The position numbers were made by a program, and so were the translations under genes. A DNA stretch of 64,000 nt, from the IMG/VR virus record IMGVR_UViG_3300021959_008943; one strand, written 5' to 3'. This stretch comes from an uncultured virus (IMG/VR IMGVR_UViG_3300021959_008943) (Duplodnaviria > Heunggongvirae > Uroviricota > Caudoviricetes). Below are positions 1 through 49,734 of the stretch, piece after piece (within the stretch, counting starts at the first letter, position 1; the number at the start of each line of letters is the position of its first letter). The notes beneath the pieces were generated by a model. The model searched no databases, was not told the DNA's origin, and worked only from the letters and a program-made list of their open reading frames with translations.

Positions 1-146
1 TAATCAGTAAGTCGGCCTAGTTCTTTTTCAGTCGCCCGAATCATTCTGCGATTCGCTCTATACTGAATAAAAGATCTTAGTGCTTCGATGATAGTTTCAA
101 CTGCCCTCGTTGAGTAGCTGTGGGCTGTTAGTATCGCTTGTGTCAT
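1..146 (-). CDS. DUF1127 (YjiS-like) small protein, truncated at window edge; not in the supplied ORF track
   Basis: ATG at 146 preceded by GAGGA SD (153-157). Translates MTQAILTAHSYSTRAVETIIEALRSFIQYRANRRMIRATEKELGRLTD..., matching the DUF1127 pattern R..R.T..EL..L(S/T)D. Overlaps the hsp20 3' end by 50 nt. Confidence 0.7.
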   Translation of the reverse strand, partial: MTQAILTAHSYSTRAVETIIEALRSFIQYRANRRMIRATEKELGRLTD

Positions 147-10318: not shown

Positions 10319-10339
10319 AAATAACTCCAAGGTTTGTTA

Positions 10340-10347
10340 TATTTATA
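10340..10347 (-). promoter_or_regulatory. Late promoter TATAAATA for gp3
   Basis: Exact motif about 20 nt upstream of the gp3 start. Confidence 0.7.
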
Positions 10348-10357
10348 TGAGGAAATT

Positions 10358-22424: not shown

Positions 22425-23177
22425 TTACCCCATAAAAAAATCTGATGGGAATTCATGCTCTAAACGAATAGATTCTCTTAGCCGTTCTAAATCTTGTTGT
22501 GCATCTTCAAAGATTTGTCTGCCATTAAGAGTTACGCCACCAGGAAGAGTCATACCTTCAAACTTAATTAAATTAGAACCCCATTGCCTTTTGAATAATG
22601 CTGTTGTGTATTCTTTTAACCAGCGATCATTATAAATTGAAGTGTTTGTATTAGGGTCTAAAATCTTATAAACTTCTGCTACAATGTAATCATCCTTTTC
22701 AATATCTTTATCTTCGAAATCCCCATAAATATAAAGTCTATTTTCTCTTCTTGAAAATTGAACTTGAGGAGTACCATTTAACTTCATATCAATTAATGAT
22801 AAGTATTGCTGCATTTGTTCATAATAAGCTAAATCGCCCATATATGTATGAAGGTTTGCAATGTCATTTAAATGTAATTGGTATTTAATATCGAAAAAAT
22901 CTTTTGTGACCGCGCCGCCTTTTATTGGAAACAGTCTAGATACATAAGTAATACTACTATCTAAAGAAATATATTGATTTGTAACATCGTCTTCTGTTAC
23001 TTTATGTTTTAAATATGTCCTTAAAGTCGCATCAGAATGAAACTCTTGATAATATTGAAGAGCTTCATCTACACGATCTTCTTGTTGTTCAGGGTCAATA
23101 TTGATTTCAATTACTGGATCACCCAATGAACGCATTACGTAATCAATTAAACTCTGCCTGCTGGTTGGATTAGCCAT
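22425..23177 (-). CDS. gp13: Neck protein gp13
   Basis: LG.PVIEIN and WLK.Y..A..K.QWG.NL.KF.G..LPGG...NG. Confidence 0.95.
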   Translation of the reverse strand: MANPTSRQSLIDYVMRSLGDPVIEINIDPEQQEDRVDEALQYYQEFHSDATLRTYLKHKVTEDDVTNQYISLDSSITYVSRLFPIKGGAVTKDFFDIKYQLHLNDIANLHTYMGDLAYYEQMQQYLSLIDMKLNGTPQVQFSRRENRLYIYGDFEDKDIEKDDYIVAEVYKILDPNTNTSIYNDRWLKEYTTALFKRQWGSNLIKFEGMTLPGGVTLNGRQIFEDAQQDLERLRESIRLEHEFPSDFFMG

Positions 23178-28749: not shown

Positions 28750-30132
28750 TTATCTAAATCTACTTCTGCCATGTACCCAAATAACTAGGCAATATCTTGT
28801 CCCTTCTTCAATGGGCTTGACCATATGCGGCAAATAACTTGGGAACATATTAATTGCACCCTTTTCTTTTGAGCCTATGACTTCCATACCATTGTTATTT
28901 ATAATAAGATCGCACCCTTTATATTCTGAAGGATCTGTTAACTGAATTACAATTGATAACTTACGAGTTGCTGATTCGCCTGGACCAACATCCATATGCC
29001 AATTATAGTAATCTTTTTGTTCTGCGGCTGGATCAAATTTGTATTCTAACAATTGTATATTGTTATGGAAACCAACTAATTCAAAGTCGTAATAAAATTT
29101 ATTTACTACTTGTATAGCATTTGCTATCTTATTAAAAATTCCAACTGTTTTTTCATCTTTCATAACACCATAAACTTTACAGCTTCTAATTTGTTTTGCG
29201 ACTTGAGCGCCGGTCATATTAGATCCTACTCCAGCATCCGTCGCATATTGTTTACTAACAACTTCATCCATCAGCATTTGGATATCGTCAGGCGTAAGAA
29301 CTATTTGAGAATTATGCTCATCTGGGGTAATTGACAAATGTCCAGGTAAATCATGATCTTTAGGACTAAGTACTGTCATATCATGATAAATGCTGCTAAA
29401 AGTTCTTAGTTGAGTTTTTGCATATTCTTCTAATTCACCATACATCTGGTCGTTATTAGCGCCTTCTTGAACTTTTTGGTTAGCTGGGCGTTCACCGAGA
29501 TTATTTCTTCCATCTTTATGCATATCTTTATGAGGGCCATTAGCATCGACATAATGAAAAAATACTTGAACTTGCCAATCACCTTTAAATTTATCGCGAT
29601 AATGATCGAGTTCGCACCCACGGTACAAGCACAAATCGCCTCTATCTAAAATAACATTTCTAGCATCGCCCATATGAATAGGCCAAATTGGATAGTCAGA
29701 AAAATCCACTGTCATAGTGGCGCTAATTTCGCACGAAGGACGATCTTTATGAATTTTTAATTCTTCTCCTTTGTAATAAATTCTGGAATATGTATATGTT
29801 GGAAGAAGATCAATGCCAACCATTTCGCCGAGCGGTTTAGCTAATTCTTCAAGCATTTTATCCCATTCAGGATCTCCATAGATAGAATCAGACAAAGGGC
29901 ATTGCGGATCTTTTTCTGTTTTTCCTGCATCCCGTAAATCAAACATATGTTTAGAAAGTTGTTTACACCGATCTTCTGGAATAACGTCAGTAATAACAAG
30001 AAATCTTTGCTCTTCAAATGTTTTAGCTGGGGTCATCGCCGGCCCAGCCATATCTTGTTGTATCATTTGCTTTGTGTGTTCCACTTGCTCTGTGTGTTTC
30101 ACTTCTTGTGGTTTAGTTCCTAGTGTAATCAT
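28750..30132 (-). CDS. Tandem two-domain 2OG-Fe(II) oxygenase
   Basis: Domain 1: PTYTYSRIY..G.EL.IHKDRPSCEIS...H.R. Domain 2: WHMD...RKLS..IQL...FPSYL.H.V.P...GTRY.LV.W. Confidence 0.9.
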   Translation of the reverse strand: MITLGTKPQEVKHTEQVEHTKQMIQQDMAGPAMTPAKTFEEQRFLVITDVIPEDRCKQLSKHMFDLRDAGKTEKDPQCPLSDSIYGDPEWDKMLEELAKPLGEMVGIDLLPTYTYSRIYYKGEELKIHKDRPSCEISATMTVDFSDYPIWPIHMGDARNVILDRGDLCLYRGCELDHYRDKFKGDWQVQVFFHYVDANGPHKDMHKDGRNNLGERPANQKVQEGANNDQMYGELEEYAKTQLRTFSSIYHDMTVLSPKDHDLPGHLSITPDEHNSQIVLTPDDIQMLMDEVVSKQYATDAGVGSNMTGAQVAKQIRSCKVYGVMKDEKTVGIFNKIANAIQVVNKFYYDFELVGFHNNIQLLEYKFDPAAEQKDYYNWHMDVGPGESATRKLSIVIQLTDPSEYKGCDLIINNNGMEVIGSKEKGAINMFPSYLPHMVKPIEEGTRYCLVIWVHGRSRFR

Positions 30133-31174: not shown

Positions 31175-32437
31175 TTAAATTTTCAAAACATGTGGATAGC
31201 GAATGCTATCATCTTTTACAGCTGTTAACCAAGCTGTTGTAACTAATACTTGTAAATTTTCCATCCAATCATTTGGATAATAAGTTTCTTTACGAAATTC
31301 CTGAAAACGAATTTTATCATTATCAATAAAATCTCCGAGATATTTATCAGTATAATATAAGAAGCTATTTTGGTTCCAATAACTTACATGAGTTGGATCT
31401 TGAAATGCACCACGGCCATCTGTGCTTGGTACTTCAATAAATGCCCAACCACCGTGCGCCAATACTCTATGTATCTCTCCCATAATTTTTGTCTTATCAT
31501 GTAGATGTTCAAGAATATGACTTGCATTTAAAACACCGACACTGTTATCAGGCAATGGAATTCCGTCATTTAAATCTGCGACAGTATCTGCATTTTTTCT
31601 TGTGTCAACCGTATGATAACCGGGATATGGATTTAATCCTCCTCCAATATCAATTTTCATCAAGCCACGTAAATCGGCATCTCTTTCAGCAAGAAGCTGG
31701 CCATACTCTCTAAATAGATCTACAGTTTTTATTTGAATTGCTTCATTACGTTCTAACCATGTATTATTACCAGTAATTCTATATAAGTAAAGGACTTTTG
31801 GTATGCGTTTCATTTTAGTAATAAGGTAAGTACGAATCATAAGCTCGTGGTCGTCACAAATAGAAAGGTCATTATTGTGGCCATCAACTTCTTCATAAAT
31901 ATCTTTACGCCAAGAACGAACATGATCTGGAGCGTACCATATATAAGATAAAGATTGAGCGCTTGGTTCAAAACTATGCATGGCCTTTAGCGTTTGGCCT
32001 TTCCATTCAAACTCTCTCCAAGTCCAACCGCCGTCTTCGCCATATGGAATAAATTCTCCTTCCATTTGTAATACAGCATTATCGCTATAAACAAATCCAA
32101 CTTCAGGATCAGATTCATACGCCTTTTTTAATTCTTCTAAACAATCAGGAGTAATTAAATCATCGTGATCGACTTCTACTAAAACATCGCCTGTACCAAT
32201 ACCAAACGCTGCTTTTTTAATTGCACCAATATTTGTATCAGTATCGTGCGTACGGAATATAATTACCTGAGCATGATTTTTTATTTGATCTGGAATGTGT
32301 TCTACTTGAATTTTATTATTCAAATATAAAATCCACTCCCAATCTTTGTATGTTTGATTAAGAACACAATCAAATAATTCTAAAAGAAAGGGAATGTTAC
32401 CTGGATCATGTTCAGGTGTAATAATACTAAATTTCAT
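31175..32437 (-). CDS. GT2-family glycosyltransferase fused to a class I SAM methyltransferase
   Basis: N-terminal FSIITP, Q.Y..WE, DHDD and DD.EL. C-terminal DIGGG, SHILEH, EI.RVL..GG and DPTH..W. Confidence 0.85.
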   Translation of the reverse strand: MKFSIITPEHDPGNIPFLLELFDCVLNQTYKDWEWILYLNNKIQVEHIPDQIKNHAQVIIFRTHDTDTNIGAIKKAAFGIGTGDVLVEVDHDDLITPDCLEELKKAYESDPEVGFVYSDNAVLQMEGEFIPYGEDGGWTWREFEWKGQTLKAMHSFEPSAQSLSYIWYAPDHVRSWRKDIYEEVDGHNNDLSICDDHELMIRTYLITKMKRIPKVLYLYRITGNNTWLERNEAIQIKTVDLFREYGQLLAERDADLRGLMKIDIGGGLNPYPGYHTVDTRKNADTVADLNDGIPLPDNSVGVLNASHILEHLHDKTKIMGEIHRVLAHGGWAFIEVPSTDGRGAFQDPTHVSYWNQNSFLYYTDKYLGDFIDNDKIRFQEFRKETYYPNDWMENLQVLVTTAWLTAVKDDSIRYPHVLKI

Positions 32438-32504: not shown

Positions 32505-33239
32505 TTATTTCGTATTATACCAAATAACTGCATGAGGATCTGACTTTTCTTCTTCTGGTCTATCTTCAGTATAATAATACAGAGCAAGTGAATATCTAGA
32601 TACAGTTTCAGGACACTGGAGAGGCTCTGGATGTCCATGAAATGCGTCGTCTGTGATATTGAATACCACCGCTCTATTAAAAATAGGTTCTACTTTAACA
32701 CAACACTTTGAAAGATCTTTATCCCATAATTCAAGATGTCCATTCCATTCTGGATTCCAATCTTCATTTAAATAAATTAAAACATTAATTCTACGATGAA
32801 GGTTATTTACAAAGTTAACATTAAAATCTGCATGGACACCTAACTTACCACCTCTTGAAATTTTATGCATTCCTGCGCCTAGCCAGTTTTCATCTGGTAA
32901 CAATCCTTGAATGCCAGTTAAATCTTCAAGAAAGTTTAATACTGTTTCAGAATACATGTAATCTAAAATAAGTTTTGTTTTAGGAGCATACTTAGCTAAA
33001 ATTTCAACGTCATTCGGATCTGCTACTACATCAGGCGCATATTGTTTTAAAATTTGAAATTCTTCTACCCATTCTGACTCATCTTGTCTCCAGTGTTGAT
33101 AGTTTTCTATTTCAGGGATAGCCTGTCGGAGCATCCAAGGATCTAGGAAATTATCCAATATGGTATGAGGAAACGGATACGCTTCTCTATAAGAAGCAAC
33201 AGATGTGTCTAGTACTGATAAGATTTTATTGTTAAGCAT
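32505..33239 (-). CDS. 2OG-Fe(II) oxygenase (prolyl-hydroxylase-like)
   Basis: PFPH..LDNFL, GAGMH, HADFN, RR.N.LIYLN, FNRAV.F, HGHP and R.S.A.YYY. Confidence 0.92.
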   Translation of the reverse strand: MLNNKILSVLDTSVASYREAYPFPHTILDNFLDPWMLRQAIPEIENYQHWRQDESEWVEEFQILKQYAPDVVADPNDVEILAKYAPKTKLILDYMYSETVLNFLEDLTGIQGLLPDENWLGAGMHKISRGGKLGVHADFNVNFVNNLHRRINVLIYLNEDWNPEWNGHLELWDKDLSKCCVKVEPIFNRAVVFNITDDAFHGHPEPLQCPETVSRYSLALYYYTEDRPEEEKSDPHAVIWYNTK

Positions 33240-33241
33240 GA

Positions 33242-35287
33242 TTAATCAAAAAAGAATAAGTGTGTGAGTCTGCTGTCGTGTAAGTCTTTTCCAAAATATT
33301 CTCCAGCAGAATGAATATGCCTTGCATCAAAAATAGCAAGACGATTAAATAAATTTCCTACAGTATCAAGAGTATGAAATCGAGTGGAATCTAGAAAGTT
33401 TCCATCAAATGCGTCATCAATAATATCTGCATCTTCTATACTGTGCTTAGCTTTATTTATCTTAGAAATATGTAGGCGTGTTCCGCTTTCATATGGAGCG
33501 TTTGGCGACAAATAAATCATTGCAGCCCAACGTTGCTGGTCAAAATGCCAAACTTGTGGATCTTGTGCTCTTGTAACTTGGAATACGCCATTCATACCGC
33601 CATCCCAATCTACAATTTTTTCACCAATGATATTTTCAAATCTATATTTTAAGTCAATTGGTCGATATTTTTCTTCTGAACGAAACCCTTTGTACCATCG
33701 GCTATCTTCTTGAAAATTAAGGCTAGTTAATGCCCAGTCTCTTAGTTCATCTGGTCTTTCATAAAAGTTATCTACAACCCATACTCTTTTTGTTGGAATT
33801 TTATTTACTGCAAAATATGTAACATCTTTTTTAGAGTTTCTTGCTTGATTTAAAGTTTCAGTATCTTGCTGAATCAATATAGGTTTAGGTGATGCTCTAT
33901 TTTTTACATCAGGGTGGCTAAATAGCCATTCCTCATTTAGTCTTTCAATGTTAATTCTTTTACATATTTGATGAAGGTAATCCAAATTAGAATCTTTTGA
34001 AATCCAAATTCTAGCAATATAATCTCCCAATGGCGTAACGTTTTTAGTTCCATCCCAATCTTGAACATCTATTTTGCCTTGCTTCCAATAGCTTTTTGCC
34101 CAAGGACATAAATCAATTATAGAATCAAAATACATTTCCCAATCAGTAGATTCTTCTTCAGGGTACATTTCATTTAATCTAGTAGCTTCTTTATATAACC
34201 TTTGAACATCGCCAGTTCCGTCAACATAATGTTTTCTGTCAATAAAGTTACAATATTGAGGAAATGGAAATGTTCTTTCAGGATCCATCATTATTGTAGT
34301 TGTGTCCAACATTTTTTTATATTGTTTTGTTTCCTGATATAAATGAACCATTTGCCATAGATGGTCATTTCTTCCAGGAGCAAATTGTTCAAGCATTGAA
34401 TATGCAGTTATAGCTTCTTTCTTTTTTCCCATAAAATTATAGCATTCACCAGCCATAATTCCAGCCATATAGCACATCTCATCTATACCAATATCACCCT
34501 TTTTATTTTTCATAGTTTGATTAATATATTCGTTTAAATACCAAATAGATCTACGGGCATATTCGTCTGCTTGTTTTTTCTTTAATGGAAAAGCAGATGA
34601 TTCCATTGCATCTCTATAGCTCTTACCAATGTACCAGAAATGATACATATTTTCTAAAAGGTTTTGCTCACGGATAAGTTTTTCTTCTAATCGCAAAGCA
34701 TCTGAAATAAATTTAGTAGGAACTGCCCACGACATTCCGTCATTAGATCCAATTTGATTAAAACCTAACGGCAGTGGATAAGCATTATAATTATGGTCAA
34801 TTTCTGGATCTAGGCAATAAATGGTTTCATGACAAGGATCGTGATTAAACGCCCATTGTAAATCGTTATTCCATAGCCAAGTTCTATAATAAACACCAGT
34901 TCCACTTACTGCTGGAATATTAAACCCATGAATTGTTTTATCATTAAATACAGACCAATCGAAATCATCATAAACTTCTAAAGTTTCATCGCAGTCCATT
35001 TTAAGAATCCAATCACACCCATGATCGACTTCATTTTGGCAATATCGAATTAAATGATCTCGGTTCCATCCAAAACCTTTCCAGCCTTCTTCCACTTCAT
35101 AAAGAACTCCTGGAATATTATTTTCCTTAGCCCAATCTTTTACAATATCTGGAGAACCATCTGTTGAGCCATTATCTTGAATTACATAATAATCAATATA
35201 TCCAAGTACAGAATCAAGCATCTTTCGAAGAACAGGCGCCTCATTCTTAAACATGGCGACCATAACAATTTTACATTCTTTATTCAT
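33242..35287 (-). CDS. Multidomain protein: GT2 glycosyltransferase, TPR-like helices, unknown insert and C-terminal 2OG-Fe(II) oxygenase-like domain
   Basis: KNEA, DNGSTDGS, DCDE (DxD) and HE; helical WYIG.SYRD region; C-terminal VVDNFY..PD, HFD, AAMIYL.P, GT, FNRL.IFD, H.A and RLT.LFFFD. Confidence 0.85.
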   Translation of the reverse strand: MNKECKIVMVAMFKNEAPVLRKMLDSVLGYIDYYVIQDNGSTDGSPDIVKDWAKENNIPGVLYEVEEGWKGFGWNRDHLIRYCQNEVDHGCDWILKMDCDETLEVYDDFDWSVFNDKTIHGFNIPAVSGTGVYYRTWLWNNDLQWAFNHDPCHETIYCLDPEIDHNYNAYPLPLGFNQIGSNDGMSWAVPTKFISDALRLEEKLIREQNLLENMYHFWYIGKSYRDAMESSAFPLKKKQADEYARRSIWYLNEYINQTMKNKKGDIGIDEMCYMAGIMAGECYNFMGKKKEAITAYSMLEQFAPGRNDHLWQMVHLYQETKQYKKMLDTTTIMMDPERTFPFPQYCNFIDRKHYVDGTGDVQRLYKEATRLNEMYPEEESTDWEMYFDSIIDLCPWAKSYWKQGKIDVQDWDGTKNVTPLGDYIARIWISKDSNLDYLHQICKRINIERLNEEWLFSHPDVKNRASPKPILIQQDTETLNQARNSKKDVTYFAVNKIPTKRVWVVDNFYERPDELRDWALTSLNFQEDSRWYKGFRSEEKYRPIDLKYRFENIIGEKIVDWDGGMNGVFQVTRAQDPQVWHFDQQRWAAMIYLSPNAPYESGTRLHISKINKAKHSIEDADIIDDAFDGNFLDSTRFHTLDTVGNLFNRLAIFDARHIHSAGEYFGKDLHDSRLTHLFFFD

Positions 35288-36018
35288 AATGATTTCTCAG
35301 CCCGTTTTTTAATAAACTCAATAATATCATCGTTATTTATTTGATCTTTTCGTGGACTATACAAAGCCCTAGGTCTATCTACCGCGGTATCAGCAATAGG
35401 CGACAAATAATACATAGCAATGCTTTTTCTATATATTCCATTAGGGCAATTAATAGATTCTGGAAATCCATGCCATGAATTTTGTGTAGTATCAAACAAA
35501 ACTGCTCTATTAAATACGCAGTCAATAGAAGATGAAATTTCATGAGCTTGGTTTAATTCTGGATTATGACTCCAAAATTCAAGATTCCCACCCCATTCTT
35601 TTTTCCAATTAGGAGTAAGATATATAATGATGTTCCATTTCCTTTGCATATTTGCCATAGGATGAATAGAATAATCTTGATGAATATTTAAATGGTCTCC
35701 ACGTTTACTCATATGCCAACCAGCACCGTGCAAACCATAATCAGGTTTTAAACATTCATCACCTGTCAGTTTTCTTAATTTGTCTGTAAATTTTTCACAG
35801 CATAAAGATAAAAACAATTGATATGTTTCTGGAGGAAATGATCCCCAAGTTTGAATTGCCTTTTTTCTTTCTAATGGATTGTCATAAGCAAACCATTTTT
35901 CAGATGAATGCGATGGAAATTGTTTTGATAATGTATGAGCTAGATCTGCTTTTAAAAAGTTGTCTATCACGAAATGTTTAAAAGGTGCTTCATACTCTTT
36001 TGCATGACTTAAGTCCAT
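35284..36018 (-). CDS. 2OG-Fe(II) oxygenase, paralog of 32505-33239
   Basis: PF.HFVIDNFL, GAGWH, HQDY, FNRAVLF, WHGFP and RKSIA.YY. Confidence 0.92.
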   Translation of the reverse strand: MDLSHAKEYEAPFKHFVIDNFLKADLAHTLSKQFPSHSSEKWFAYDNPLERKKAIQTWGSFPPETYQLFLSLCCEKFTDKLRKLTGDECLKPDYGLHGAGWHMSKRGDHLNIHQDYSIHPMANMQRKWNIIIYLTPNWKKEWGGNLEFWSHNPELNQAHEISSSIDCVFNRAVLFDTTQNSWHGFPESINCPNGIYRKSIAMYYLSPIADTAVDRPRALYSPRKDQINNDDIIEFIKKRAEKSL

Positions 36019-36587
36019 TTTGGTCCTTCAAACCACGCAGAAATACTATAGCGAACCCCTTTTGTTACAGGTAAAGCTCTATGACTTAAAACTGAAGGAA
36101 AATATATAAATGTTCCTTGAGCCTTATAATCATTTGGATCCGGTGGATTGGATGAGCCAGTAATTTCTAATTCGCCACCTTCATAATCATTTGGATCTGA
36201 TAATTGTAAAACACAAGATACTTTTCTATGATGTGATGGATCATCATTCATCCAAAATGTATCTACGTGTTCTTTATATTCGCCCTGAACGGCCGAATTA
36301 TATTCAGCAAATTGCACGTATTCAAGTCTATTGACGTGAATATTAAAAAAATCTTGATTTGCTTGTATTTGTGTTTTCCATAAAGTATCAAAAAGTTTTT
36401 GGAATTTCCAATCACCAGCTTGAATAAACGATACTTTACTTTTACGATATTCTGTAAGGTGCGCATCTTCGCCCAGACCAACTACAGCATCTTGTGATGG
36501 TAATAGTTTAGCCTGAGCAATAATTTCTTCGCAATCTTCTTTACTTAAATACGAACCAAAATAACACCAGTCGCCGTCCCATGCCAT
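36009..36587 (-). CDS. 2OG-Fe(II) oxygenase (PKHD-type)
   Basis: R.S.V, HVD, RK.S..LQLSDP.DYEGG.L and FPS...H...PVT.G.RYS...WF.GP. Confidence 0.92.
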   Translation of the reverse strand: MAWDGDWCYFGSYLSKEDCEEIIAQAKLLPSQDAVVGLGEDAHLTEYRKSKVSFIQAGDWKFQKLFDTLWKTQIQANQDFFNIHVNRLEYVQFAEYNSAVQGEYKEHVDTFWMNDDPSHHRKVSCVLQLSDPNDYEGGELEITGSSNPPDPNDYKAQGTFIYFPSVLSHRALPVTKGVRYSISAWFEGPKWT

Positions 36588-36613: not shown

Positions 36614-36868
36614 TTAAACTTCAAATTTAATATATACGTGTGTAGTATCTTCATCATATTGATGAATATATCTTTCGCCATCTTCTAAAGTTGCTTCATC
36701 TGGCGCTTCAGTTATTGCTTCTGCTGCAGTAAATTGCGCTTCAGAGTTTTGTGTCAATTTCCACCAACCCGTTGCATTAATTGCTGCGTCTATGGCAGCT
36801 TCGCCTTCATTAAAAAAGCCTTCTTTACTATTTAAGCCTAATTCTGATGTTGTTAGATCAATTGCCAT
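36614..36868 (-). CDS. Small acidic hypothetical protein (possible fibre accessory)
   Basis: 84-aa ORF overlapping the last collagen gene by 11 nt. Confidence 0.6.
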
Positions 36869-38660
36869 TTAACTTTCCTATTCTAGATTTTAAATCATTA
36901 ATTTGATTTTTTTGTTCTTTTAACGCTTCAACCACCAAAGGAACAACTCTTGCATAATCTACTGTAAGATATTTCTTACCTGATTTACTATGCCCGTGTC
37001 TATTTATATCAAATGGAGCACCACGAACAACCTCAGGTAAAGCCTTCTCTAGTTCTTGAGCAATCAAACCAATTTTTCTACCAGACCTATCTCCAGCAAT
37101 ATTCATGGCTAATTTATTTGGTGAATAGAAATAGCCATTTAATTTACTAATTCTTTTAATAGGATTATCAATTGGACCTTTTACATTTTTTAAGCGCCTG
37201 TCTGAATACCCAGCAACAATATCTAATTGGGCGCGAACATCGCCTGAGACCATTCCGTCATCTACAGGAGCTGGAGATCCAATTCTTACAAAACCAGTGG
37301 TTTCATTAATTACTCCAGGTGTACCTTGATAACCTTGATAGCCCTGAACACCTTGATAACCACCAACACCACCTCCGCCTCCTACACCTGTTCGTCCTTG
37401 ATAACCACTTGCTCCAGAAGCGCCACCACTGCCCTGTGGTCCTCGTGGACCCTGCGGACCGCGATACCCTGTTGTCGGAGCACCCTGTCTACCTTGATAG
37501 CCTTGGACACCTTGATAACCTTGAACACCAGTTACACTACCAGCAGCACCAGTTGCGCCAGTTGCTCCGGATGGTCCTTGCGGTCCTCTTCCACCCTGCG
37601 GTCCACGATGGCCAGATCTACCAGTTGAACCTTGTGTACCTTGTCTGCCTTGAACACCAGTTGCGCCCTGAGGTCCTCTAGCACCTTGTGGACCTCTTCC
37701 GCCCTGTGGACCGCGTGATCCTTGCGAACCCTGTGGTCCTTGCGGTCCTCTTCCACCCTGAGCACCTTGTCTACCTGTTGCACCAGTAGATCCTTGTCTA
37801 CCCTGTGGACCTCTTCCGCCTTGTGGTCCTTGCGGACCTTGGACACCCTGTGGTCCAGTTCCACCTTGAGAACCTTGAACACCTTGAGTACCCTGAGCGC
37901 CTTGAACACCTTGCGGTCCTCTTCCGCCTTGTGGTCCTCTTCCACCTTGAAAACCTTGTGCGCCGGTTCCGCCTTGTGGTCCTTGAGCGCCTTGAGCACC
38001 TTGTCTGCCCGTCGGCCCTTGTGTACCTTGCCTACCCTGAGGTCCTCTAGCTCCTTGCGCGCCTTGCGGTCCTCTTCCACCTTGTGGGCCTTGATTGCCA
38101 GTGTGGCCAGTAGATCCTTGAACACCTTGCCGACCAGCAATACCAGTTGATCCGCCAGCACCGCCTGATCCTTGGACACCCTGTGGTCCAGTTCCACCTT
38201 GAGCACCTTGTCTACCAGCAACACCACCAATACCACCAATACCAGTTGCGCCTACTGCGCCCTGAGCACCTATTGGATTATTACCCTGCCTACCTTGCGG
38301 TCCTTGTGTACCCTGCCTACCTTGCGCGCCTTGTCTACCGGTCGACCCTTGCGGCCCTTGCTGGCCAGTTCTACCAGTTGCTCCTTGCGGACCTTGTGGT
38401 CCTTGTGGTCCTTGAGCACCTTGAACACCAGTTGCCCCTTGAACACCTTGAAAACCTGGTACTCCACCTACACCTTGAAAACCTGCAGCGCCAGTTTGAC
38501 CAGCAACACCAGTAAAACCTTGAATACCACTTCTACCCGTTGGCCCTTGTGGTCCTTTAATATTATTATTAACAGAGCCAAGCCAAACACCGTCGCTGTC
38601 AACTAGATCAGTACCGTTAATGGTAACACCATTTTTGACTATGAAGGGTTGCTTAGCCAT
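36858..38660 (-). CDS. Collagen-like fibre chain C with C-terminal peptidase S74-type chaperone
   Basis: Gly-X-Y residues 36-448; SDRRLK, GLIAQE and V.Y...VPL..EALKE. Confidence 0.9.
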
Positions 38661-41091
38661 TTAATTCTCTTTGTTCTACTTTTTGTCTTAGTATATTTAT
38701 TTGTGCTTGCTGCTCTTTAATAGCTTGCAATAATAGCGCAACAACTCTATCATACTTGACAGTTTTATATTTTTTATTAATAGGCGCAGTTGCAATAAGT
38801 TCAGGAGCAACCTCTTCAATTTGTTGAGCAATAAGGCCAAGTTTACGTCCATCATCTGGCAAGCCTAAACTTTTACCTAACCCATTTACTGTAAAATAAA
38901 TTCCAGTGATTGATTTTAATTTTTGAACTGCATCTTTTATTACTTCAATTTGTTCTTTTAATCTTTCATCTGAATAACCAGCAGTAATTCCGCCCCCTAC
39001 CCAAATAGATCCTGTAGGACTTGACCACTGCGAAGAGTTAGTGCCAATTCTTAATCTACTACCAGTCAGCTCGTACGTTACAGAATCTGCGCCGCCTGGA
39101 CCCTGCGGGCCCTGTGGTCCTCGTGGACCCTGTGGACCGCGATAGCCCCCAGGGCCTTGAACACCTTGATAACCTTGAGGACCCTGCGCACCTTGGCGTC
39201 CAGCTACGCCAGTTCTACCAGTAGGACCAGTTCCGCCTTGCGGTCCTCTTACGCCAGCTGTACCCTGTGGTCCTTGCGGTCCTCTTGAACCCTGTGGACC
39301 GCGCAAACCCTGCGCTCCTTGTCTGCCAGTATATCCTTGAACACCAGTTCTACCAGTAACAGACCCACTCGGTCCAGTTCCACCCTGTGGTCCTTGAACA
39401 CCTTGAGCGCCAGAAGCTCCTTGAGTACCTTGATAACCTTGAACGCCAGTTCTACCACCTGTGCCAGTTACGCCACTAGATGCGCCAGTAACACCACCAA
39501 CACCTGTTGCGCCCTGAGCACCAGTTGTGCCTGTTGGATTTGTACCTTGTCTACCTTGAAAACCAGAAACACCCTGAGCGCCCTGTCTACCACCAGCACC
39601 AGTTGCACCAGTTGCACCGGCTGGAGGAAGATTACCTAAACCAAGAAGATTAGCAATTGAAGGTTCGTTCCCGTCTATTTTATCTACGCGAGGATGGGCA
39701 AACTGTTGGTTAGTAGATGTATTAGTAGAATAATAAAGATATGTTCTATGCGTAGCGCCATTAGCATTAGCAGACCAAACGAAGTCACTATTTGATGCAA
39801 TTTTATGTCCATCAGTAGTCCAAACACCAGTATCAGCGTCATTTGAACCAATACCTGTTCCAGCTGCCCAAACGTGCCCTACAACTAAATACCATGTATC
39901 AGCAACACCCCACCAGCCAGATGCTCTAAAATAAGGGTTTGATGTAGTTGATGAGCTCGCCCGCGATCGAGTAGCAGTATTAGTACCATTTTCACGGCTA
40001 TAATAACCTAGATAAAAAGAACCATTACCAATAGTTTTTCTTCTTACCCATGTAGTAAATCTATATTTGTATGTTTTATCGATGGACATAGTACTACTAG
40101 CCCATCCGCCGTCAGCATTACTCGTCGCGTCTTGATTCGATACGTCCCAAACAACAACGTTAGTATTACCCCAAGGATCCGTATCAAGTATTCTTGAATT
40201 ACCGTCGCCATTTTGGCCAAAGAATGTAGCACTACCAGTTTGACCAGCATACCAATTATTATATGGCAAAAGACTATTACCAATAGCAGGCGAACCTCGA
40301 CTTCCGCCTTGAACACCAGTTGCACCTTGTGGTCCTTGAGCACCTTGTCTGCCACTAACACCACCAGTGCCACCTCCACCTTGTGGTCCGCGATGTCCGG
40401 TAGCGCCTGTTGGATTTGCACCTTGCGGTCCTTGAACACCCTGAGGACCACTTCCACCTTGAGCACCTTGTCTACCACCAGCACCAGTAGCTCCTTGAGC
40501 CCCCCAAGCACCTTGCGCTGAAGAACCTTGTGGACCTTGAACACCAGCAAATCCTTGAACACCTTGCCGGCCTTGTGCTCCACCTACACCTTGAGCTCCT
40601 GAAGCGCCTTGTCTACCTGTTGCACCAGTAGATCCTTGTCTACCCTGATAACCTTGAACACCTTGATAACCTTGTACTCCAGATCTTCCTTGAAATCCAG
40701 CTTGACCTGATACGCCTTGAACACCCTGTGGTCCAGTTCCACCTTGCGCGCCTTGTGGTCCTTGAGCGCCTTGACGCCCTTCTGCACCAATTGAACCTTG
40801 AGCGCCTTGAACACCAGTTCTACCTGAAGCACCGGTTGGGTTTGTACCCTGTCTACCTTGAGGTCCTGAAGCACCCTGAGGTCCTTGTGTACCTTGAGCG
40901 CCTTGAGGACCTTGGGCTCCATTAAAACCCTGTCTGCCTTGAGGACCCTGAGGACCTTGTACACCCTGTGGACCAACTCCAATTTGAGTTTTCGGGCCGC
41001 CCCAACTACCATCTTCATTAACAACAGTTTGGTCTGTGCCATTTTTACGGACGATCAATCCTTTTTTTACATCAAACTTATCAACCGTCAT
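38653..41091 (-). CDS. Collagen-like fibre chain B with an inserted globular domain and S74-type chaperone
   Basis: Gly-X-Y residues 40-264 and 492-669; 227-aa aromatic-rich insert; SDERLK and GLIAQQ. Confidence 0.9.
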
Positions 41092-42850
41092 CTAATAATA
41101 TCCCAGCTAACTCTTCGATCTCTTCCTGCTGCTCTTTAATAGCTTGCACTAACAAAGGCACCACAAATTCGTACTGTACTGTTAAATATTTATCCTCGGT
41201 TTTCTCAGCTGAAGTAATTGGTGCGTCTTTAACAACCTCAGGTAAAACTTCTTTTACTTCTTGAGCTATTAATCCTGACTGCTGACTATAATCATGATAT
41301 CCTAAATTTTCAGCAATTTTATTTTGAGTATAAAATACACCATTAAGTTTTGATAATTTTTCATTAGCATCTTTAATATATTCAATATTATCTTTTAAAC
41401 GTATATCTGAGTAAAAGCCAACAATATTACCGCTTGCTCTTAAATCGCCAGCTGGTGGTGTAGGTGCATTTACACCAAGTCTTAGCATTGAAGTTAAGGT
41501 TCCTGCTTGTGAGGACCCGGTTCTACCAGTTCTACCAGTTTTTCCGCTTGTGCCAGAAGAACCTTGCGGACCCCGTGCCCCTTGAGATCCTTGTGGCCCA
41601 CGGCTATTTCCGCCCTGCACACCCTGATATCCCTGAACACCTTGATAGCCCCCTGGACCAGTTCCGCCTTGAACACCTTGTCTACCTGTTGCGCCTGTTA
41701 CGCCCCCAACGCCAGTTGCGCCCTGTGGTCCTCTTCCGCCTTGTGGTCCTTGCGGTCCTCTTCCACCTTGAAAACCTTGTGCACCTTGATAACCACCAAC
41801 ACCACCTCCGCCTCCAGGGCCTTGAACACCAGTTCTACCAGTTGCGCCTTGCGGTCCTCGATATCCTTGAACACCTTGGTATCCTTGTGCACCAGTATAA
41901 CCTTGAACACCTTGTCTACCTTGTATACCAGTGTAACCTTGAACACCTGTTGCCCCGGCTGTACCCTGAGGGCCTTGCGGACCTTGTCTACCAGTATAAC
42001 CTTGAACACCTTGAAAACCTGTTTTACCACCAACACCAGCTGGTCCCTGAGGTCCGCCTACTCCGCCTACGCCTCTTTTACCAATAATGCCAGTTCTACC
42101 AGTATAACCTTGAACACCCTGATAACCTTGAACACCTGTTCTACCAGTTGCGCCTTGCGGTCCTTGAAAACCTGTCGCGCCGGTGGTGCCGGTCGAACCT
42201 TGAGCACCTTGTCTACCAGCAACACCAGTATAACCTTGAACACCTTGTCTACCAGTATAACCTTGAACACCTTGATAACCTTGCGCTCCAGCAGAACCAG
42301 TTCCGCCTTGAACACCTTGAGGGCCCCGTGATCCTTGAGGGCCTTGAGGTCCTTGTGTCCCTTGAAAACCTTGAGTACCCTGAGCGCCTTGAACCCCGCT
42401 AGCTCCTTGCGGTCCTTGCGGTCCTCTTCCACCCTGAGGCCCTTGTGCGCCTTGAGGTCCTTGTGTCCCTTGAGCACCAGTTGCACCTTGAAAACCAGTA
42501 ACACCACCAATACCAGTTGCACCAGTTGCTCCGCCATTGCCTTGAAAACCCTGAGCGCCGACTCCCCCAGTTGCCCCTTGAGCACCCTGAGCACCTTGAA
42601 CCCCTGAAGCACCGGTTGCACCTTGCGCGCCTTGTCTACCGGCCGGGCCAGTGGCTCCAGTAGGCCCTTGCGCGCCACTTGCTGTACCAGCACCAGCTGT
42701 TCCTTGAGTACCCTGTGGGCCTGTGCCACCTTGATTACCTTGAAAACCTATAAGACCTGAAGTTGATCCTATCCAATAGCCATCAGAGTCAACAACTGAA
42801 GTGTCATTAACTTTAAGTCCTTTTTCAAAGATAAATGGTTTTTTTGCCAT
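41081..42850 (-). CDS. Collagen-like fibre chain A with S74-type chaperone
   Basis: Gly-X-Y residues 35-447; SDIRLK and GLIAQEV..VLPE.V. Confidence 0.9.
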   Translation of the reverse strand: MAKKPFIFEKGLKVNDTSVVDSDGYWIGSTSGLIGFQGNQGGTGPQGTQGTAGAGTASGAQGPTGATGPAGRQGAQGATGASGVQGAQGAQGATGGVGAQGFQGNGGATGATGIGGVTGFQGATGAQGTQGPQGAQGPQGGRGPQGPQGASGVQGAQGTQGFQGTQGPQGPQGSRGPQGVQGGTGSAGAQGYQGVQGYTGRQGVQGYTGVAGRQGAQGSTGTTGATGFQGPQGATGRTGVQGYQGVQGYTGRTGIIGKRGVGGVGGPQGPAGVGGKTGFQGVQGYTGRQGPQGPQGTAGATGVQGYTGIQGRQGVQGYTGAQGYQGVQGYRGPQGATGRTGVQGPGGGGGVGGYQGAQGFQGGRGPQGPQGGRGPQGATGVGGVTGATGRQGVQGGTGPGGYQGVQGYQGVQGGNSRGPQGSQGARGPQGSSGTSGKTGRTGRTGSSQAGTLTSMLRLGVNAPTPPAGDLRASGNIVGFYSDIRLKDNIEYIKDANEKLSKLNGVFYTQNKIAENLGYHDYSQQSGLIAQEVKEVLPEVVKDAPITSAEKTEDKYLTVQYEFVVPLLVQAIKEQQEEIEELAGILLDDG

Positions 42851-42861: not shown

Positions 42862-43932
42862 TTACGCGTCAATTAATGTAAGAGAAATATTAAACACCGT
42901 GCTTGTTGCCGAGCTAGGGGTTGCCCTTATCCTTACATTTCCTCCATTTATATCTACATTATATGTAGCTAAATTTGTTCCAGTATCTACCGTACCATAC
43001 TCAGTATGAGATACATTTGTGCCATCATGCACAATAAGTAATTTGGTTATATGTCTGTTTGATCCTCTTTTTGCCGCGATTAATACTTCGGCCGAACCGT
43101 ATGAAGCTGCCGTAAATGTTGCTATATTTGTCTGAGAAGTTGTAGTAGTTGTAGAGCTTACAGATGATAGTCTGTGTTTATCTAGTGTAATATTGCCGGT
43201 AGTAGAAAGAGCTCCAACTGTTGCTGTTCCAGTAATAGCAAAGTCTTCAGATCCATCTTTACTAATTAACGTCCCAGAAGTTGGCAGTGTAACGGAAGTT
43301 GTGCCTGTAGTAGTTAATGTAGTAGCATGCCCACCGGAAGTGGTAAGATTTCCACCAAGAATTAAATTACCAGTAAGATCAATTAGTCTATCTGCATTGT
43401 TAACATCAAGTGTTATTGTTCTATCTGCAGATAAAATAGGACTAGCATTATTTGAAGTTAATTTTGTTTGATAACTTGTAGTGGTAGTATCTCTTAAACC
43501 AAAAGTACTAATATTAGTAATTGATCCTGGGCCAGTTATAGTTGGCAAGTTTATGGTTGGAGAAGTTAATGTTTTATTTGTAATTGTTTGTGTTGCTGAT
43601 ACACCAACAACATCATCACCACTTATCCCAGAACTTAATTGGGATAAGGTTGTTGTTAATGTATTATTAGAAAGATTTATAACTTTATTTGTAAATGTTT
43701 GGTTACCAGCAAGAGTAGCAATGGTGTTATCAACTGAAACAGTAGGAGAAACCGCATGGCCTGTTGTTGAAACATCTATTCCGGTGCCACCTACTATGTC
43801 TTTTATATAATTTCCACTTGTACCAGAATCTAGTAAAATGGTTTCACTTTGTACAATAGCTCTGACCCCAGCCGAATCTAGCGAAGCTTCTGTTAATGAT
43901 GTAGATAAAAATGTACTAAGCTTTTGTACCAT
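42862..43932 (-). CDS. Putative tail fibre/virion structural protein
   Basis: Thr-rich; QT.TNK repeats; C-terminal SA....(H/E)...LIVHDG.....EYG domain typical of marine T4-like fibres. Confidence 0.65.
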   Translation of the reverse strand: MVQKLSTFLSTSLTEASLDSAGVRAIVQSETILLDSGTSGNYIKDIVGGTGIDVSTTGHAVSPTVSVDNTIATLAGNQTFTNKVINLSNNTLTTTLSQLSSGISGDDVVGVSATQTITNKTLTSPTINLPTITGPGSITNISTFGLRDTTTTSYQTKLTSNNASPILSADRTITLDVNNADRLIDLTGNLILGGNLTTSGGHATTLTTTGTTSVTLPTSGTLISKDGSEDFAITGTATVGALSTTGNITLDKHRLSSVSSTTTTTSQTNIATFTAASYGSAEVLIAAKRGSNRHITKLLIVHDGTNVSHTEYGTVDTGTNLATYNVDINGGNVRIRATPSSATSTVFNISLTLIDA

Positions 43933-46887: not shown

Positions 46888-49734
46888 CTATCCTAATGCC
46901 ACCGAAAATGCTATAGATTGTGCTCTCGTTGAAAAATCTGCTTCATCTGCTGAATCACCTTTAGGTCCTTGTGGTCCTCGTTGACCAATAGAAGTAAATA
47001 TTTGCCACGTACTATTTATAAAGATCAACTCAAGGATGCTTTGTCCTAAGTCTAATTCAAAATTTTCAGCGTATCCTTCAATAGTTGATCCATTGCGATC
47101 AATAAACAAAGAATTGTCTGTCCAATTCCCTATGTCTATTAGCTTAATATAATCTCCAGTTGTAGGAGATGCTGGCAATGTAACTGTAAATGAGGCTGAA
47201 GTTGTATCAATTGCGTATCTTCCTGCTGATACTGCTGTAAAGTTAGTATTATATGATGTATAGTCTGTAGAAAATACTCTAAAGTCAGAATCAAATCCTA
47301 AATAACTACCTCTTAAAGCATTGAAGTTCCATGTACCAAGTTCAAAAGATGCCGCGGCGCGATTTATGGTTGATGCCGAAGGGCTTGAATCAAGATCATC
47401 TTGAATTAAATTATTAAACGCATACCATTCGCCATTTGTAGCATCTCTGAAAAATCCAGCTCTACGAATGGTTGAACCACCGTCTTGGGAATATCTTCCA
47501 ACCACACCAATATCAACAGCATCAGAAGTATTTGAATCGGCAACTTTTATAAGAGCATTGGTAACACGAAGATCGTTTTGCTCATTAAGTATGTAAGCAC
47601 CACCAACAGTAAGATCGCCTGTGATAGTCATTCCAGCAAATTCTACTGAATCTGAAGTTGCTATTGTTTGGCCAATAGCAATAGATCCACTATTAATTGT
47701 TACACCAGTTCCGGCAGTAAAATGAGCTCTTACATCTGTTGCAGAAGGTCCGGTATAACTTATGGCTCCAGTTGAAGAATTATATGATAAAGATCCATCA
47801 CCACCATTATCTACTACAGAAATAGCATTCTTAGCATCGCTATCTGCTCTTGCAGTAGTGTAATATAATCTAGTACCTTCTTGAATATCTGTAGTATTAA
47901 TACTAGTATTGACATATGAATCTACTCTAGCATCAGTGTAATATAATCTAGTACCTTCTGTTAAGTCTGAAGTAGATCTGTCAGTCAAAGATGCAGCAGA
48001 TAACGTACCAAATAATGTGCCGGTTGCAGTAACATTACCTTGAGCAATAATATCTTGGGCTCTAATGTTTTTATCAACACCAAGACCACCAGCAACCGTC
48101 AAAGCAGCGCTTGTTTTAGAAGCTGCTTCCGTAAAATTCGGAATATTAATTTTACCACTAGTATCAATTGAAAGTAAAGTGGTGCCACCATCTAAATCGA
48201 ATGGCGAAGATCCAATGTCACTTTTAACTTTAAAGCTAGTATTTGTTCCAGAAAAACCAACAACCATTTCATTACTAGCTGTTGTTCCACTTACTCCAAT
48301 TCCATGACTAAATTGATTATCAATGGACAGCGCTAAAACAGAATTTCTAGAACTATCATCAGAGCTAAAATTAAATACTGATTGAGTAGAGTCACCAATA
48401 TTTGTATTACTATTGATAGCCAGACTTCCGTATTGCCGGCCATATACGGCTGTAGAATCAAGTAATGGATCTACTAATATTTTATTAGTAAGAACTGTCG
48501 TTAAATTATCTACAAAAGCAGAATCAACTCTAACATCTATTGCACTATCTGCTCTAGAAGTTGTATAATATAGATTAGTACCTTCTGTAATATCATCTGT
48601 ATTTTTAGTGTCTAACCTAACATCAAAATCGCTATCAGATCTTGCGGTTGTATAATATAGATTAGTACCTTCTGCCACATTAGTTGTTGACTTGGTTGTT
48701 AACCTAATATCAAAATCACTATCTGCTCTAGAAGTTGTATAATATAGATTAGTTGAACCTTCGGGCAAATCATTAGTTGAGTTATGGCTCAATTCAAAGG
48801 TCATAGGATTGCTGTCTGCATCCCTAATAGCTAATTGACCATTGCTTTCATGCAAAATCATAGTACCTAAGAAGATACTATTACCACTTAAATAAAGATC
48901 TTTAAATCGTAAATTATTAGAACCTAAATCATATGCAGAATCGGTATCGGGTATTATGCTAGTAGTAATATTTTGTAGGTTTGAATCAAATCTTGATCTA
49001 GTATAATAAAGATTAGTTGAACCTTCAGTTACAGAATCTGTATCGATGGCATTACGCGTTATAACACCCGTTGCAGTATTGTAAGCTATTCCATCCCCAG
49101 CAACAAGATGCTTTCGAGTTTCTGTTTGCATCGATGAAGTAGATGCATAATTCGAATCATTACCAATAAAAATATTACCAGCATTTAAGTTTGGTGTAGC
49201 TGCTGTACGACCGGCTCCGCCAACTTTAATAATACCTTCAGAGGCATGGGATCTTACAACTTTACCGATGTTTTGAATAAGAGAGGCTTCACCGGCTGGC
49301 TTAACGTTAGTGATTGCTCCAGCTGTAGTAGATACATATAATGTATTGCCTACTGCAAAACTAGAAGTATCTAATCCTGTTAAATTTCCGGAAGTAATAA
49401 TTACAACTTCAGCATTATTATTAGCACTGGCTTTAAGTAAACCAAACGCAGGCATGGCAGAAGGATTATTTGCGTCAGCTAGGCCTATCGTGGGTTTGCT
49501 TCCGCTCACACCATTAATGTAAACAGCCTGTCCTTTTGTAACAGGAAAACCTGATTCGTTTTTAGCAGCGAATTCTATCGGGGATTCTTGTAATGACTTA
49601 ACATCATCATCTGTATTTTTATAATACAGATTTCCGTCTTGGTAGTTAATGGCTAGTTCGCCATAATCTAATGATGCGACTTCTGGAATTCTGCCCGCAA
49701 CGGCGGACTTCTTCAGTCTAACTTTAGTAGCCAT
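46888..49734 (-). CDS. Putative tail fibre protein with EG(S)T(N/R)LYYT repeats
   Basis: N-terminal ..LKKS.V.G..P....YGELAIN; six repeats; C-terminal TVTLPASP..GD and a short GQRGPQGPKG. Confidence 0.75.
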   Translation of the reverse strand: MATKVRLKKSAVAGRIPEVASLDYGELAINYQDGNLYYKNTDDDVKSLQESPIEFAAKNESGFPVTKGQAVYINGVSGSKPTIGLADANNPSAMPAFGLLKASANNNAEVVIITSGNLTGLDTSSFAVGNTLYVSTTAGAITNVKPAGEASLIQNIGKVVRSHASEGIIKVGGAGRTAATPNLNAGNIFIGNDSNYASTSSMQTETRKHLVAGDGIAYNTATGVITRNAIDTDSVTEGSTNLYYTRSRFDSNLQNITTSIIPDTDSAYDLGSNNLRFKDLYLSGNSIFLGTMILHESNGQLAIRDADSNPMTFELSHNSTNDLPEGSTNLYYTTSRADSDFDIRLTTKSTTNVAEGTNLYYTTARSDSDFDVRLDTKNTDDITEGTNLYYTTSRADSAIDVRVDSAFVDNLTTVLTNKILVDPLLDSTAVYGRQYGSLAINSNTNIGDSTQSVFNFSSDDSSRNSVLALSIDNQFSHGIGVSGTTASNEMVVGFSGTNTSFKVKSDIGSSPFDLDGGTTLLSIDTSGKINIPNFTEAASKTSAALTVAGGLGVDKNIRAQDIIAQGNVTATGTLFGTLSAASLTDRSTSDLTEGTRLYYTDARVDSYVNTSINTTDIQEGTRLYYTTARADSDAKNAISVVDNGGDGSLSYNSSTGAISYTGPSATDVRAHFTAGTGVTINSGSIAIGQTIATSDSVEFAGMTITGDLTVGGAYILNEQNDLRVTNALIKVADSNTSDAVDIGVVGRYSQDGGSTIRRAGFFRDATNGEWYAFNNLIQDDLDSSPSASTINRAAASFELGTWNFNALRGSYLGFDSDFRVFSTDYTSYNTNFTAVSAGRYAIDTTSASFTVTLPASPTTGDYIKLIDIGNWTDNSLFIDRNGSTIEGYAENFELDLGQSILELIFINSTWQIFTSIGQRGPQGPKGDSADEADFSTRAQSIAFSVALG
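47840..49030 (-). repeat. Six dispersed EG(S)T(N/R)LYYT..R.DS peptide repeats, partly conserved at DNA level
   Basis: GTATAATATAGATTAGT-like units near 48565, 48650 and 48735; related units near 47860, 47940 and 49000. Confidence 0.85.

Follow-up and report, generated by a model that had tools for sequence, protein, structure and literature searches.

We examined a stretch of 64,000 nucleotides (nt) from an uncultured virus of the Caudoviricetes (IMG/VR record IMGVR_UViG_3300021959_008943), referred to below as the window, in which three consecutive genes on the minus strand encoded collagen-like proteins, here called chains A, B and C. The phage was T4-like in its gene content. Namely, the window carried genes for the gp23 major capsid protein, scaffold, prohead protease, portal, sheath and large terminase, as well as gp15, gp14, gp13, UvsW, the sliding clamp and the clamp loader. 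A 978-amino-acid (aa) structural protein had its closest cultured relative in Synechococcus phage S-CAM1, with 46% amino-acid identity, and a DNA search with 6.9 kb of flanking structural genes returned no match from the cultured-phage collection. Neither S-CAM1 nor S-PM2, the closest cultured relatives of the 978-aa protein, possessed collagen genes at the corresponding site. The three open reading frames (ORFs) were present, all on the minus strand, where an earlier note based on the letters alone had placed them, and their anatomy could be read directly from the translations:

41081..42850, minus strand: chain A, alpha type, 589 aa (ORF, translation, Pfam, alpha clade in the tree); anchor aa 1-31 (nt 42758-42850), Gly-X-Y rod aa 32-447 (nt 41510-42757), tip aa 448-480 (nt 41411-41509), S74 chaperone from Ser481 (nt 41084-41410).
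38653..41091, minus strand: chain B, beta type, 812 aa (ORF, translation, Pfam, beta clade); anchor aa 1-39 (nt 40975-41091), rod 1 aa 40-264 (nt 40300-40974), inserted globular domain aa 265-491 (nt 39619-40299), rod 2 aa 492-669 (nt 39085-39618), tip aa 670-706 (nt 38974-39084), S74 chaperone from Ser707 (nt 38656-38973).
36858..38660, minus strand: chain C, gamma type, 600 aa (ORF, translation, Pfam, gamma clade); anchor aa 1-35 (nt 38556-38660), rod aa 36-451 (nt 37308-38555), tip aa 452-485 (nt 37206-37307), S74 chaperone from Ser486 (nt 36861-37205).

As the earlier note had described, all three chains shared an N-terminal anchor, here delimited to 31-39 aa, and a C-terminal S74 domain, and the genes overlapped by 11 nt between A and B (41081-41091) and by 8 nt between B and C (38653-38660). 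Counting of the Gly-X-Y runs gave chain A a rod span of 416 residues with 137 triplets and 2 breaks, and chain C a span of 416 residues with 137 triplets and 3 breaks. The figure of 413 residues given earlier for both chains differed only in where the end triplets were cut. The rod of chain B, 225+178 = 403 residues with 131 triplets and 6 breaks, in addition to the 227-aa insert, was recounted with identical figures. At the textbook collagen rise of 0.286 nm per residue, the rods of A, B and C were computed to be 119, 115 and 119 nm long, close to the approximately 120 nm proposed before. The Pfam Collagen family (PF01391) matched A, B and C with E-values of 4e-44, 4e-37 and 3e-44, and Peptidase_S74 (PF13884) was found at their C-termini with 44.5, 37.2 and 40.3 bits at a cut-off of 22. 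The Y-S-D-x-R-L-K motif was invariant in all six aligned S74 domains, its serine being Ser481 in A, Ser707 in B and Ser486 in C. The SDxRLK motif of Peptidase_S74 has a catalytic role in self-cleavage. The solved S74 relatives found in the PDB were 6F45 (long tail fibre distal subunit), 7DC3 and 8JOV, all three being entries with a single sequence in 3 or 18 chains.

Each rod domain contained 0-1 each of Asp and Glu, and their Arg residues brought the net charge to about +22 to +28 per chain. The X positions were occupied mainly by Ala, Pro, Val or Arg, with Pro sitting at X, and the Y positions mainly by Gln (about half) and Thr; lysines numbered 3, 0 and 0 in the rods of A, B and C. The G+C content was 0.43-0.49 over the rods versus about 0.33-0.39 in the surroundings.

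Within the window, the C-terminal domains of A, B and C had 39-45% pairwise identity and their anchors 41-55%, while the rods had several offsets at which they aligned with the same quality. With A and C placed in matched register, the two were no more alike than at other offsets, if anything less (z-score -2.9). DNA repeats between the window genes reached only 60-79% identity, and the best rod-to-rod DNA alignments had 65-68% identity with exact matches of at most 41 nt. By these comparisons, the three chains were old paralogues, and the observation of the earlier note was borne out in full. Recent gene conversion as the source of their equal length was rejected for the window on the basis of the low repeat identity and the A/C register comparison.

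To place the trio among its relatives, we combined four scans, namely with the alpha C-terminal domain, with a six-sequence S74 alignment, with the same alignment on metagenome contigs, and with a seven-sequence anchor alignment (a 20-sequence version was too diverse, and the 7-sequence subset was used). Together, the scans produced about 226 loci, each designated here by an L number, and 33 of them contained tandem sets of genes with an anchor, a Gly-X-Y rod, a tip of about 30 aa and an S74 domain. After removal of duplicates, there were 17 plain-rod loci (window included) with 44 genes and 6 big-domain loci, where a short collagen stalk was followed by 210-1147 aa of globular sequence ahead of S74. 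L185 and L197, two-gene sets with bead-like inserts and with S74 domains outside the three clades described below, were excluded from the 17. When used as protein queries, the C-terminal domains of alpha and gamma found 713 and 874 records, all with less than 60% identity and with no trio-bearing cultured phage among them. The nearest record, G001, was a 27.9-kb fragment with a chain C layout identical to that of the window. The scan of metagenome contigs hit mainly short contigs and added zero new complete trios, and no solved structure was found to be related to the anchor profile (best E 0.11).

A maximum-likelihood tree of 73 tip-plus-S74 sequences separated three clades, alpha (16 rows, support 100/97), beta (16 rows, 99/92) and gamma (17 rows, 98/93). 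Every locus with three complete genes (10/10) had exactly one alpha, one beta and one gamma gene, and in five more loci (L190, L043, L223, L039 and L026) a third gene, of the missing type, was cut by the contig end. L073 possessed two genes that formed a separate lineage outside the three clades. The gene order was alpha-beta-gamma in the window and most loci and beta-alpha-gamma in L004, L183, L220, L039 and L026. With one gene of each clade across loci, the triplication was older than the split between these phages. The trio was an old and conserved module in T4-like aquatic myoviruses.

Some variation was seen around this common plan. The gamma gene of L216 had a 411-aa N-terminal domain in place of the anchor. 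Anchor types and S74 types were re-assorted between the window and L004, where the window alpha anchor resembled the L004 beta anchor, the window beta anchor that of L004 gamma, and the window gamma anchor that of L004 alpha; both loci still retained one of every anchor type. The re-assortment of anchors among chain types indicated that the paralogues recombine within or near the rods. The big-domain trios (L212, L214, L217, L218, L221, L206 and L184) had near-identical anchors, short stalks and large, unequal globular domains, and they probably represented three different receptor-binding fibres on one docking site. Since the globular parts of these trios differed by hundreds of residues within a locus, they must be homotrimers.

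The central observation was that the rods of one locus were nearly equal in length, while the rods of different loci were not. The numbers of triplets per chain were as follows:

window: 137/131/137
L004: 125/122/123
L026: 140/139
L027: 180/175/177
L189: 186/187/181
L190: 187/163
L039: 100/98
L043: 86/87
L073: 156/143
L183: 202/199/205
L192: 168/159/169
L209: 178/173/183
L216: 29/28
L220: 68/66/65
L223: 110/115
L224: 24/23/26
L225: 136/130/137

Between loci, rod length ranged from 23 to 205 triplets (nine-fold), for which fibres of about 21 to 180 nm would be expected. Within loci, the intraclass correlation coefficient (ICC) was 0.992 for triplets and 0.996 for span over the 17 loci and 44 genes, and in 20000 shuffles a within-locus spread as small as the observed one never arose. 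When each close clade was reduced to a single locus, the remaining 12 loci gave an ICC of 0.994 (triplets) and 0.996 (span). The within-locus spread was about 2%, relatives being matched within about 2-4% and seldom exactly. The idea of divergent chains under a shared length constraint, which the earlier note had raised from the window alone, was strongly supported: once relatives were included, the match lay far beyond chance. According to that note, one, two or four copies with uncorrelated lengths in relatives would have spoken against its reading; instead, relatives held the same three chain types with tightly co-varying lengths. The trio is a real, non-chance feature, and we hold with high confidence that the triad is real together with its length lock.

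Comparison of sister loci showed the lock in motion. Where two loci were sisters in each of the three clades, all measurable chains had changed in the same direction and to a similar extent (L043 86/87 vs L183 199-205; L220 65-68 vs L224 23-26; L223 110/115 vs L225 130-137; window 131-137 vs L004 122-125). The DNA of paralogous rods had 63-77% identity with a longest exact match of 12-51 nt (16 loci), and no conversion tracts were seen in 15 of the 16 loci, L209 being the exception (68 nt at 97% identity). Since paralogous rods were just 63-77% alike, recent homogenisation did not explain the lock. The lock was not absolute, as L190 had 187 triplets in beta and 163 in gamma, and L188 and L189 differed by 6 triplets in beta only. 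Span was better kept than triplet count (pooled standard deviation of the logarithm 0.021 vs 0.035; 12/17 loci), and extra residues were offset by fewer triplets with a slope of -0.86 +/- 0.13. The use of span versus triplet count as a test between assemblies was discarded as non-discriminating, since a bulge and a damaged triplet slot are both valid readings of a break.

The 227-aa insert of chain B had hundreds of relatives at 40-66% identity, most of which formed the N-terminal half of a protein of about 450 aa, with a Laminin_G_3 domain as the second half. Pfam assigned zero families to the insert even at E 1. Its predicted fold was a beta-sandwich (predicted local distance difference test score, pLDDT, 90.3), with the best PDB fold matches among the sugar-binding modules CBM4, CBM22 and CBM16, which were moderate (template modelling score, TM, 0.4-0.5; 6-14% identity). 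In this model, the insert was a knob resembling a sugar-binding module and placed after 225 rod residues. The inserts of L004 beta, L192 alpha and L192 beta were PA14/GLEYA domains, that of L209 had no assigned family, and by BLAST the inserts of L004, L192 and L209 were all unrelated to that of window B. The presence of an exchangeable sugar-binding-type knob partway along the rod of one chain suggested glycan-directed adhesion as the function of the trio. A 539-aa record from a 123879-bp public contig (P0001) was 89% identical to the B insert and started inside it; this was probably a chain B relative with a mis-called start.

The interruptions of the Gly-X-Y pattern provided a view on how the chains may be put together. 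The number of breaks differed between chains of the same locus (2/6/3 in the window, 2/0/26 in L027, 2/14 in L073 and 0/5/0 in L225), and none of the 11 breaks of the window coincided between chains. Over 170 breaks from 14 loci, 2 coincided when counted from the N end and 4 from the C end, where about 15 were expected. Thus, breaks did not lie at matching levels in partner chains as they do in animal heterotrimeric collagens. For 10 non-redundant loci (window included) compared with circular shifts, the deficit of coincident break pairs had P values of 0.004-0.02 at tolerances of 3-4 residues and was weaker at 6-9, several settings having been tried without correction. A super-period of 12-13 triplets was common to all chains of the locus in L183, L043, L027, L189, L039, L225 and L004, and the L183 chains were colinear and in phase from the N end (z-scores 9.3, 6.6 and 3.2 at lag 0). 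The chains of the window had neither a shared super-period nor a common register (z at most 2.4).

The earlier note had offered two assemblies, a single ABC heterotrimer with a looped-out domain and three homotrimeric fibres bound by a common length constraint. Of these, the constraint was upheld. As to the assembly, we lean towards three homotrimers over one ABC helix because breaks never lined up between chains and because the matching was approximate. Three separate homotrimeric fibres, whose equal length would be kept by selection on the set, were given an even chance. Unequal break counts, the single-chain length changes of L188/L189 and of L190, and the N-terminal domain of L216 gamma all favoured this arrangement, as did the big-domain trios, which have the same anchor and cannot share one helix, and the single-sequence assemblies of solved S74 relatives. 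A number of points weighed against it. A and C had no receptor-binding domain of their own, so that three separate functions were not evident, and there was no demonstrated reason why separate fibres would need equal length. Indeed, stalk lengths were unmatched in the big-domain trios (ICC 0.13, 6 loci), which argued that equal length is no general need of three fibres with a common anchor, and the match was poor in L185 (28/40 triplets) and L197 (41/47). Retention of one chain of each type, overlapping genes and a spread of about 2% were what would be expected of a mixed helix. In insert-bearing chains, the collagen segments added up to the length of the partners (window 403 vs 416; L004 378 vs 383/378; L209 542 vs 560/549; L192 509 and 500 vs 511). 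Finally, 1-2 break pairs coincided between chains where circular shifts predicted 5.5-7.1 (10 non-redundant loci); this coincidence rarer than chance hinted that the chains feel each other, and it kept physical coupling open.

One ABC heterotrimer, in which the alpha, beta and gamma S74 domains would nucleate a single mixed triple helix, the B insert would loop out as one knob and breaks would be buffered by two regular partner chains, was judged doubtful. It would accommodate the one-of-each composition of all ten complete trios, the overlapping genes, the lock held at an ICC of 0.99 over a nine-fold range, the segment sums of insert-bearing chains, the scarcity of coincident breaks and the lack of length matching in trios that were clearly homotrimeric. 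It would also fit the super-period common to chains in many relatives, including the in-phase chains of L183, and the retention of every anchor type in the window and L004 in spite of re-assortment. However, triplet numbers were only roughly equal (137/131/137, 180/175/177, 156/143), and with folding from the C end the anchors would end up displaced by 4-15 residues. A chain with 26 or 14 breaks would need partners with 0 or 2, and near-identical L188, L189 and L190 had changed the length of single chains by 6-24 triplets. The different N-terminal architecture of L216 gamma, the window chains without a shared period or register and the single-sequence S74 structures also spoke against it. With only 0-1 each of Asp and Glu, the rods offered no charge pairing that could fix the register. 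It was far less probable still that the chains were homotrimers whose equal length was a by-product of history, through whole-rod copying or shared descent followed by slow drift. The colinear, in-phase rods of L183 looked as they would after an old copying event, some loci had near-identical anchors (exact over 60 nt in L039 and 39 nt in L183, identical in L212), and the re-assorted anchors implied recombining paralogues. On the other hand, window A and C were saturated at X and Y and had different breaks, yet both spanned 416 residues; conversion tracts were missing from all of the 16 compared loci except L209; extra residues were compensated by fewer triplets; and all chains shifted jointly in every sister pair, while one exchange cannot replace three interleaved rods. 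Lateral bundling of three homotrimers was also considered and judged unlikely because of the strong positive net charge of each chain and the near absence of acidic residues.

The genes next to the trio in the window, all on the minus strand, were as follows:

42862..43932, minus strand: Ser/Thr-rich fibre-like protein, 356 aa, upstream of chain A.
36614..36868, minus strand: small, very acidic ORF, 84 aa, with a start overlapping the chain C stop by 11 nt.
36009..36587, minus strand: 2-oxoglutarate (2OG)-Fe(II) oxygenase, 192 aa (PF13640, prolyl-hydroxylase-type family; PDB relatives are PKHD-type hydroxylases).
35284..36018, minus strand: 2OG-Fe(II) oxygenase, 244 aa (PF13640 and PF13661; weak PDB match to OGFOD1), a conserved neighbour.
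33242..35287, minus strand: fusion of an N-terminal family 2 glycosyltransferase (GT2) and a C-terminal DUF6445 domain (Pfam), 681 aa, a conserved neighbour.
32505..33239, minus strand: third 2OG-Fe(II) oxygenase, 244 aa (Pfam), with a counterpart in L183 and L004.
31175..32437, minus strand: GT2-methyltransferase fusion, 420 aa (Pfam), a conserved neighbour.

Downstream of the trio, the same set of enzymes recurred in order. An oxygenase, a second oxygenase, the GT2-DUF6445 fusion and the GT2-methyltransferase fusion followed the trio in five of the seven loci scanned with Pfam (L191, L220, L183, L192 and L225); L216 and L224 had reduced versions, and L004 was alike by gene size and sequence. 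A counterpart of the 192-aa oxygenase came after the trio in L191, L220, L183, L192, L225 and L216, and the GT2-methyltransferase fusion was also present in L191, L220, L183, L192, L224 and L225. The neighbours showed the HxD...H iron triad, the 2OG-binding Arg and the double-stranded beta-helix fold of 2OG oxygenases. In the DUF6445 part, HxD...H...R was invariant in 9/9 aligned sequences, and its AlphaFold2 (AF2) model (pLDDT 78) was matched by Foldseek to OGFOD1 and PHD2 at TM 0.45-0.60; with this motif and fold, it looked like a 2OG oxygenase domain as well. Additional genes of 2OG oxygenase type lay in the window at 28750-30132 and 10334-11119, one of them after a part assigned by PHROGs to ferrochelatase and one on the plus strand between capsid and replication genes, so that the phage had at least six such enzymes. 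These hydroxylase-like and glycosyltransferase enzymes probably decorate the fibres. Lysyl hydroxylation was not the chemistry, since the rods contained 3, 0 and 0 lysines. The cultured cyanophages S-SSM7 (L231) and S-CAM9 (L232) had a single giant S74 fibre (2328 aa with 0 triplets and 1830 aa with 59 triplets, respectively), followed by a small ORF and 2OG oxygenases. This indicated that the pairing of fibres and oxygenases is wider than the collagen trios, and the enzymes may go with fibres of any kind or with a variable part of the genome.

The 84-aa acidic ORF was translationally coupled to the end of chain C. It had no Pfam or PHROG family and was absent from this site in some relatives, the next gene of L191 starting 14 nt downstream of the trio. 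No Pfam or PHROG family was found for the 356-aa upstream protein either, and its C-terminal end matched the end of a 1212-aa protein ahead of the trio in L004. Another fibre protein of 948 aa was encoded at 46888-49734 of the window, with repeated 'EGTNLYYT' motifs and a short collagen-like stretch (GQRGPQGPKGD) at its end. With respect to the neck genes, L191, L220 and L224 had the trio, 2-4 enzyme genes, a protein of about 260-317 aa and then gp14, with gp15 next in L191 and L220, while about 9 kb of further genes separated the trio of the window from gp13 (22425-23177). On the T4 map, the site seen in L191, L220 and L224 is presumably the place of wac, the whisker gene, just before the neck genes gp13 and gp14.

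If the three chains form three homotrimers, their maturation can be pictured by analogy with other S74 proteins. The S74 chaperone at the C-terminus of each chain would bring about its trimerisation, and from there the triple helix would zip up. The chaperone would subsequently cut itself off at the conserved serine (Ser481 in A, Ser707 in B and Ser486 in C). The mature fibre would then consist of a virion anchor of 31-39 aa, a rod with positive charge and a length of about 115-119 nm, and a tip of about 33 aa, with B adding its sugar-binding-type knob. The three homotrimers would be mounted through their homologous anchors, with their common length maintained by selection and changing mainly by steps of repeat units. 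The position of the genes before the neck genes suggested that these would be neck or collar fibres making a first, sugar-directed contact with the host, probably after decoration by the neighbouring enzymes.

Several known systems resembled the trio in part. The fibres with S74 chaperones, such as endosialidase-type tailspikes and distal long tail fibres, have the same C-terminal domain and SDxRLK motif. In comparison, the trio consisted of three anciently diverged copies that always occurred together and had length-locked rods, and two of its chains lacked a receptor-binding domain beyond the tip of about 33 aa. The trio could be seen as an analogue of T4 fibritin (wac) in position and layout only, both having a short anchor at the N-terminus, a long rod of three chains and a small domain at the C-terminus that nucleates folding. 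Unlike fibritin, it had a Gly-X-Y rod rather than a coiled coil, S74 rather than foldon, and three paralogues rather than one gene. Like animal heterotrimeric collagens and C1q, it had three distinct chains whose Gly-X-Y parts were nearly equal in length and whose genes were adjacent, and the non-collagenous domain at each C-terminus might act as a chain selector. The likening of S74 chaperones to procollagen C-propeptides in the earlier note is an analogy. However, the breaks of the trio were unaligned, its triplet numbers were not exactly equal, and no sequence relation to those proteins existed beyond the Gly-X-Y repeat. Fusion of collagen repeats to S74 has already been described in polinton-like viruses (PMC12220804), and Gly-X-Y ORFs have been regarded as candidate tail fibres in P-SSM2 (PMC1079782), pelagimyophages (PMC7029224) and rhizobiophages (PMC4621102).

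The nearest parallel to the gene triad, likened by gene arrangement, was found in the Pasteuria ramosa collagen-like protein (PCL) triplets. In these triplets, each of three sequence groups contributes one gene, and the order and orientation of the genes are constant (PMC13233619, bioRxiv 10.1101/2025.03.22.644704). The PCLs are bacterial spore adhesins rather than phage fibres, and their order is fixed, while that of the phage trio was alpha-beta-gamma or beta-alpha-gamma depending on the locus. In myophage A-1(L), neck fibres with distal sugar-binding modules have been described (PMC10966104). As for the enzymes, the fusion of a 2OG oxygenase-like domain to a glycosyltransferase beside collagen genes was like that of mimivirus L230 and animal LH3; in contrast to the LH3 and L230 systems, lysine at Y was scarcely available as a substrate in the rods. 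Iyer and colleagues proposed that collagen-like and tail-collar proteins are modified by bacterial dioxygenases encoded alongside them (PMC2938197). S74 chaperones on collagen-like phage fibres are already known. A literature search, in which subscription journals were not covered, returned no report of phage collagen trios with locked lengths, nor of a conserved three-gene set whose rod lengths moved in lockstep over a nine-fold range without sequence homogenisation.

The length lock offers a clean example from nature of a selected trait, length, that is shared among several genes. It raised a testable question, namely whether heterotrimeric collagens exist outside animals and whether the S74 chaperone can specify chain choice. 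If the chains did form one ABC helix, it would be the first mixed-chain collagen outside animals. Three diverged S74 chaperones would each select one chain, a sugar-binding domain would loop from one strand, the phage would supply its own cytoplasmic hydroxylation and glycosylation enzymes, and rod length would evolve as one trait across three genes. Self-assembling and self-trimming collagen rods of tunable length could also be of interest to protein engineers. The conserved hydroxylase-like and glycosyltransferase neighbours pointed to a phage-encoded pathway of fibre decoration. Since the module seemingly occupied the position of the T4 whisker gene, it may define the neck or adhesion fibres of many uncultured aquatic myoviruses.

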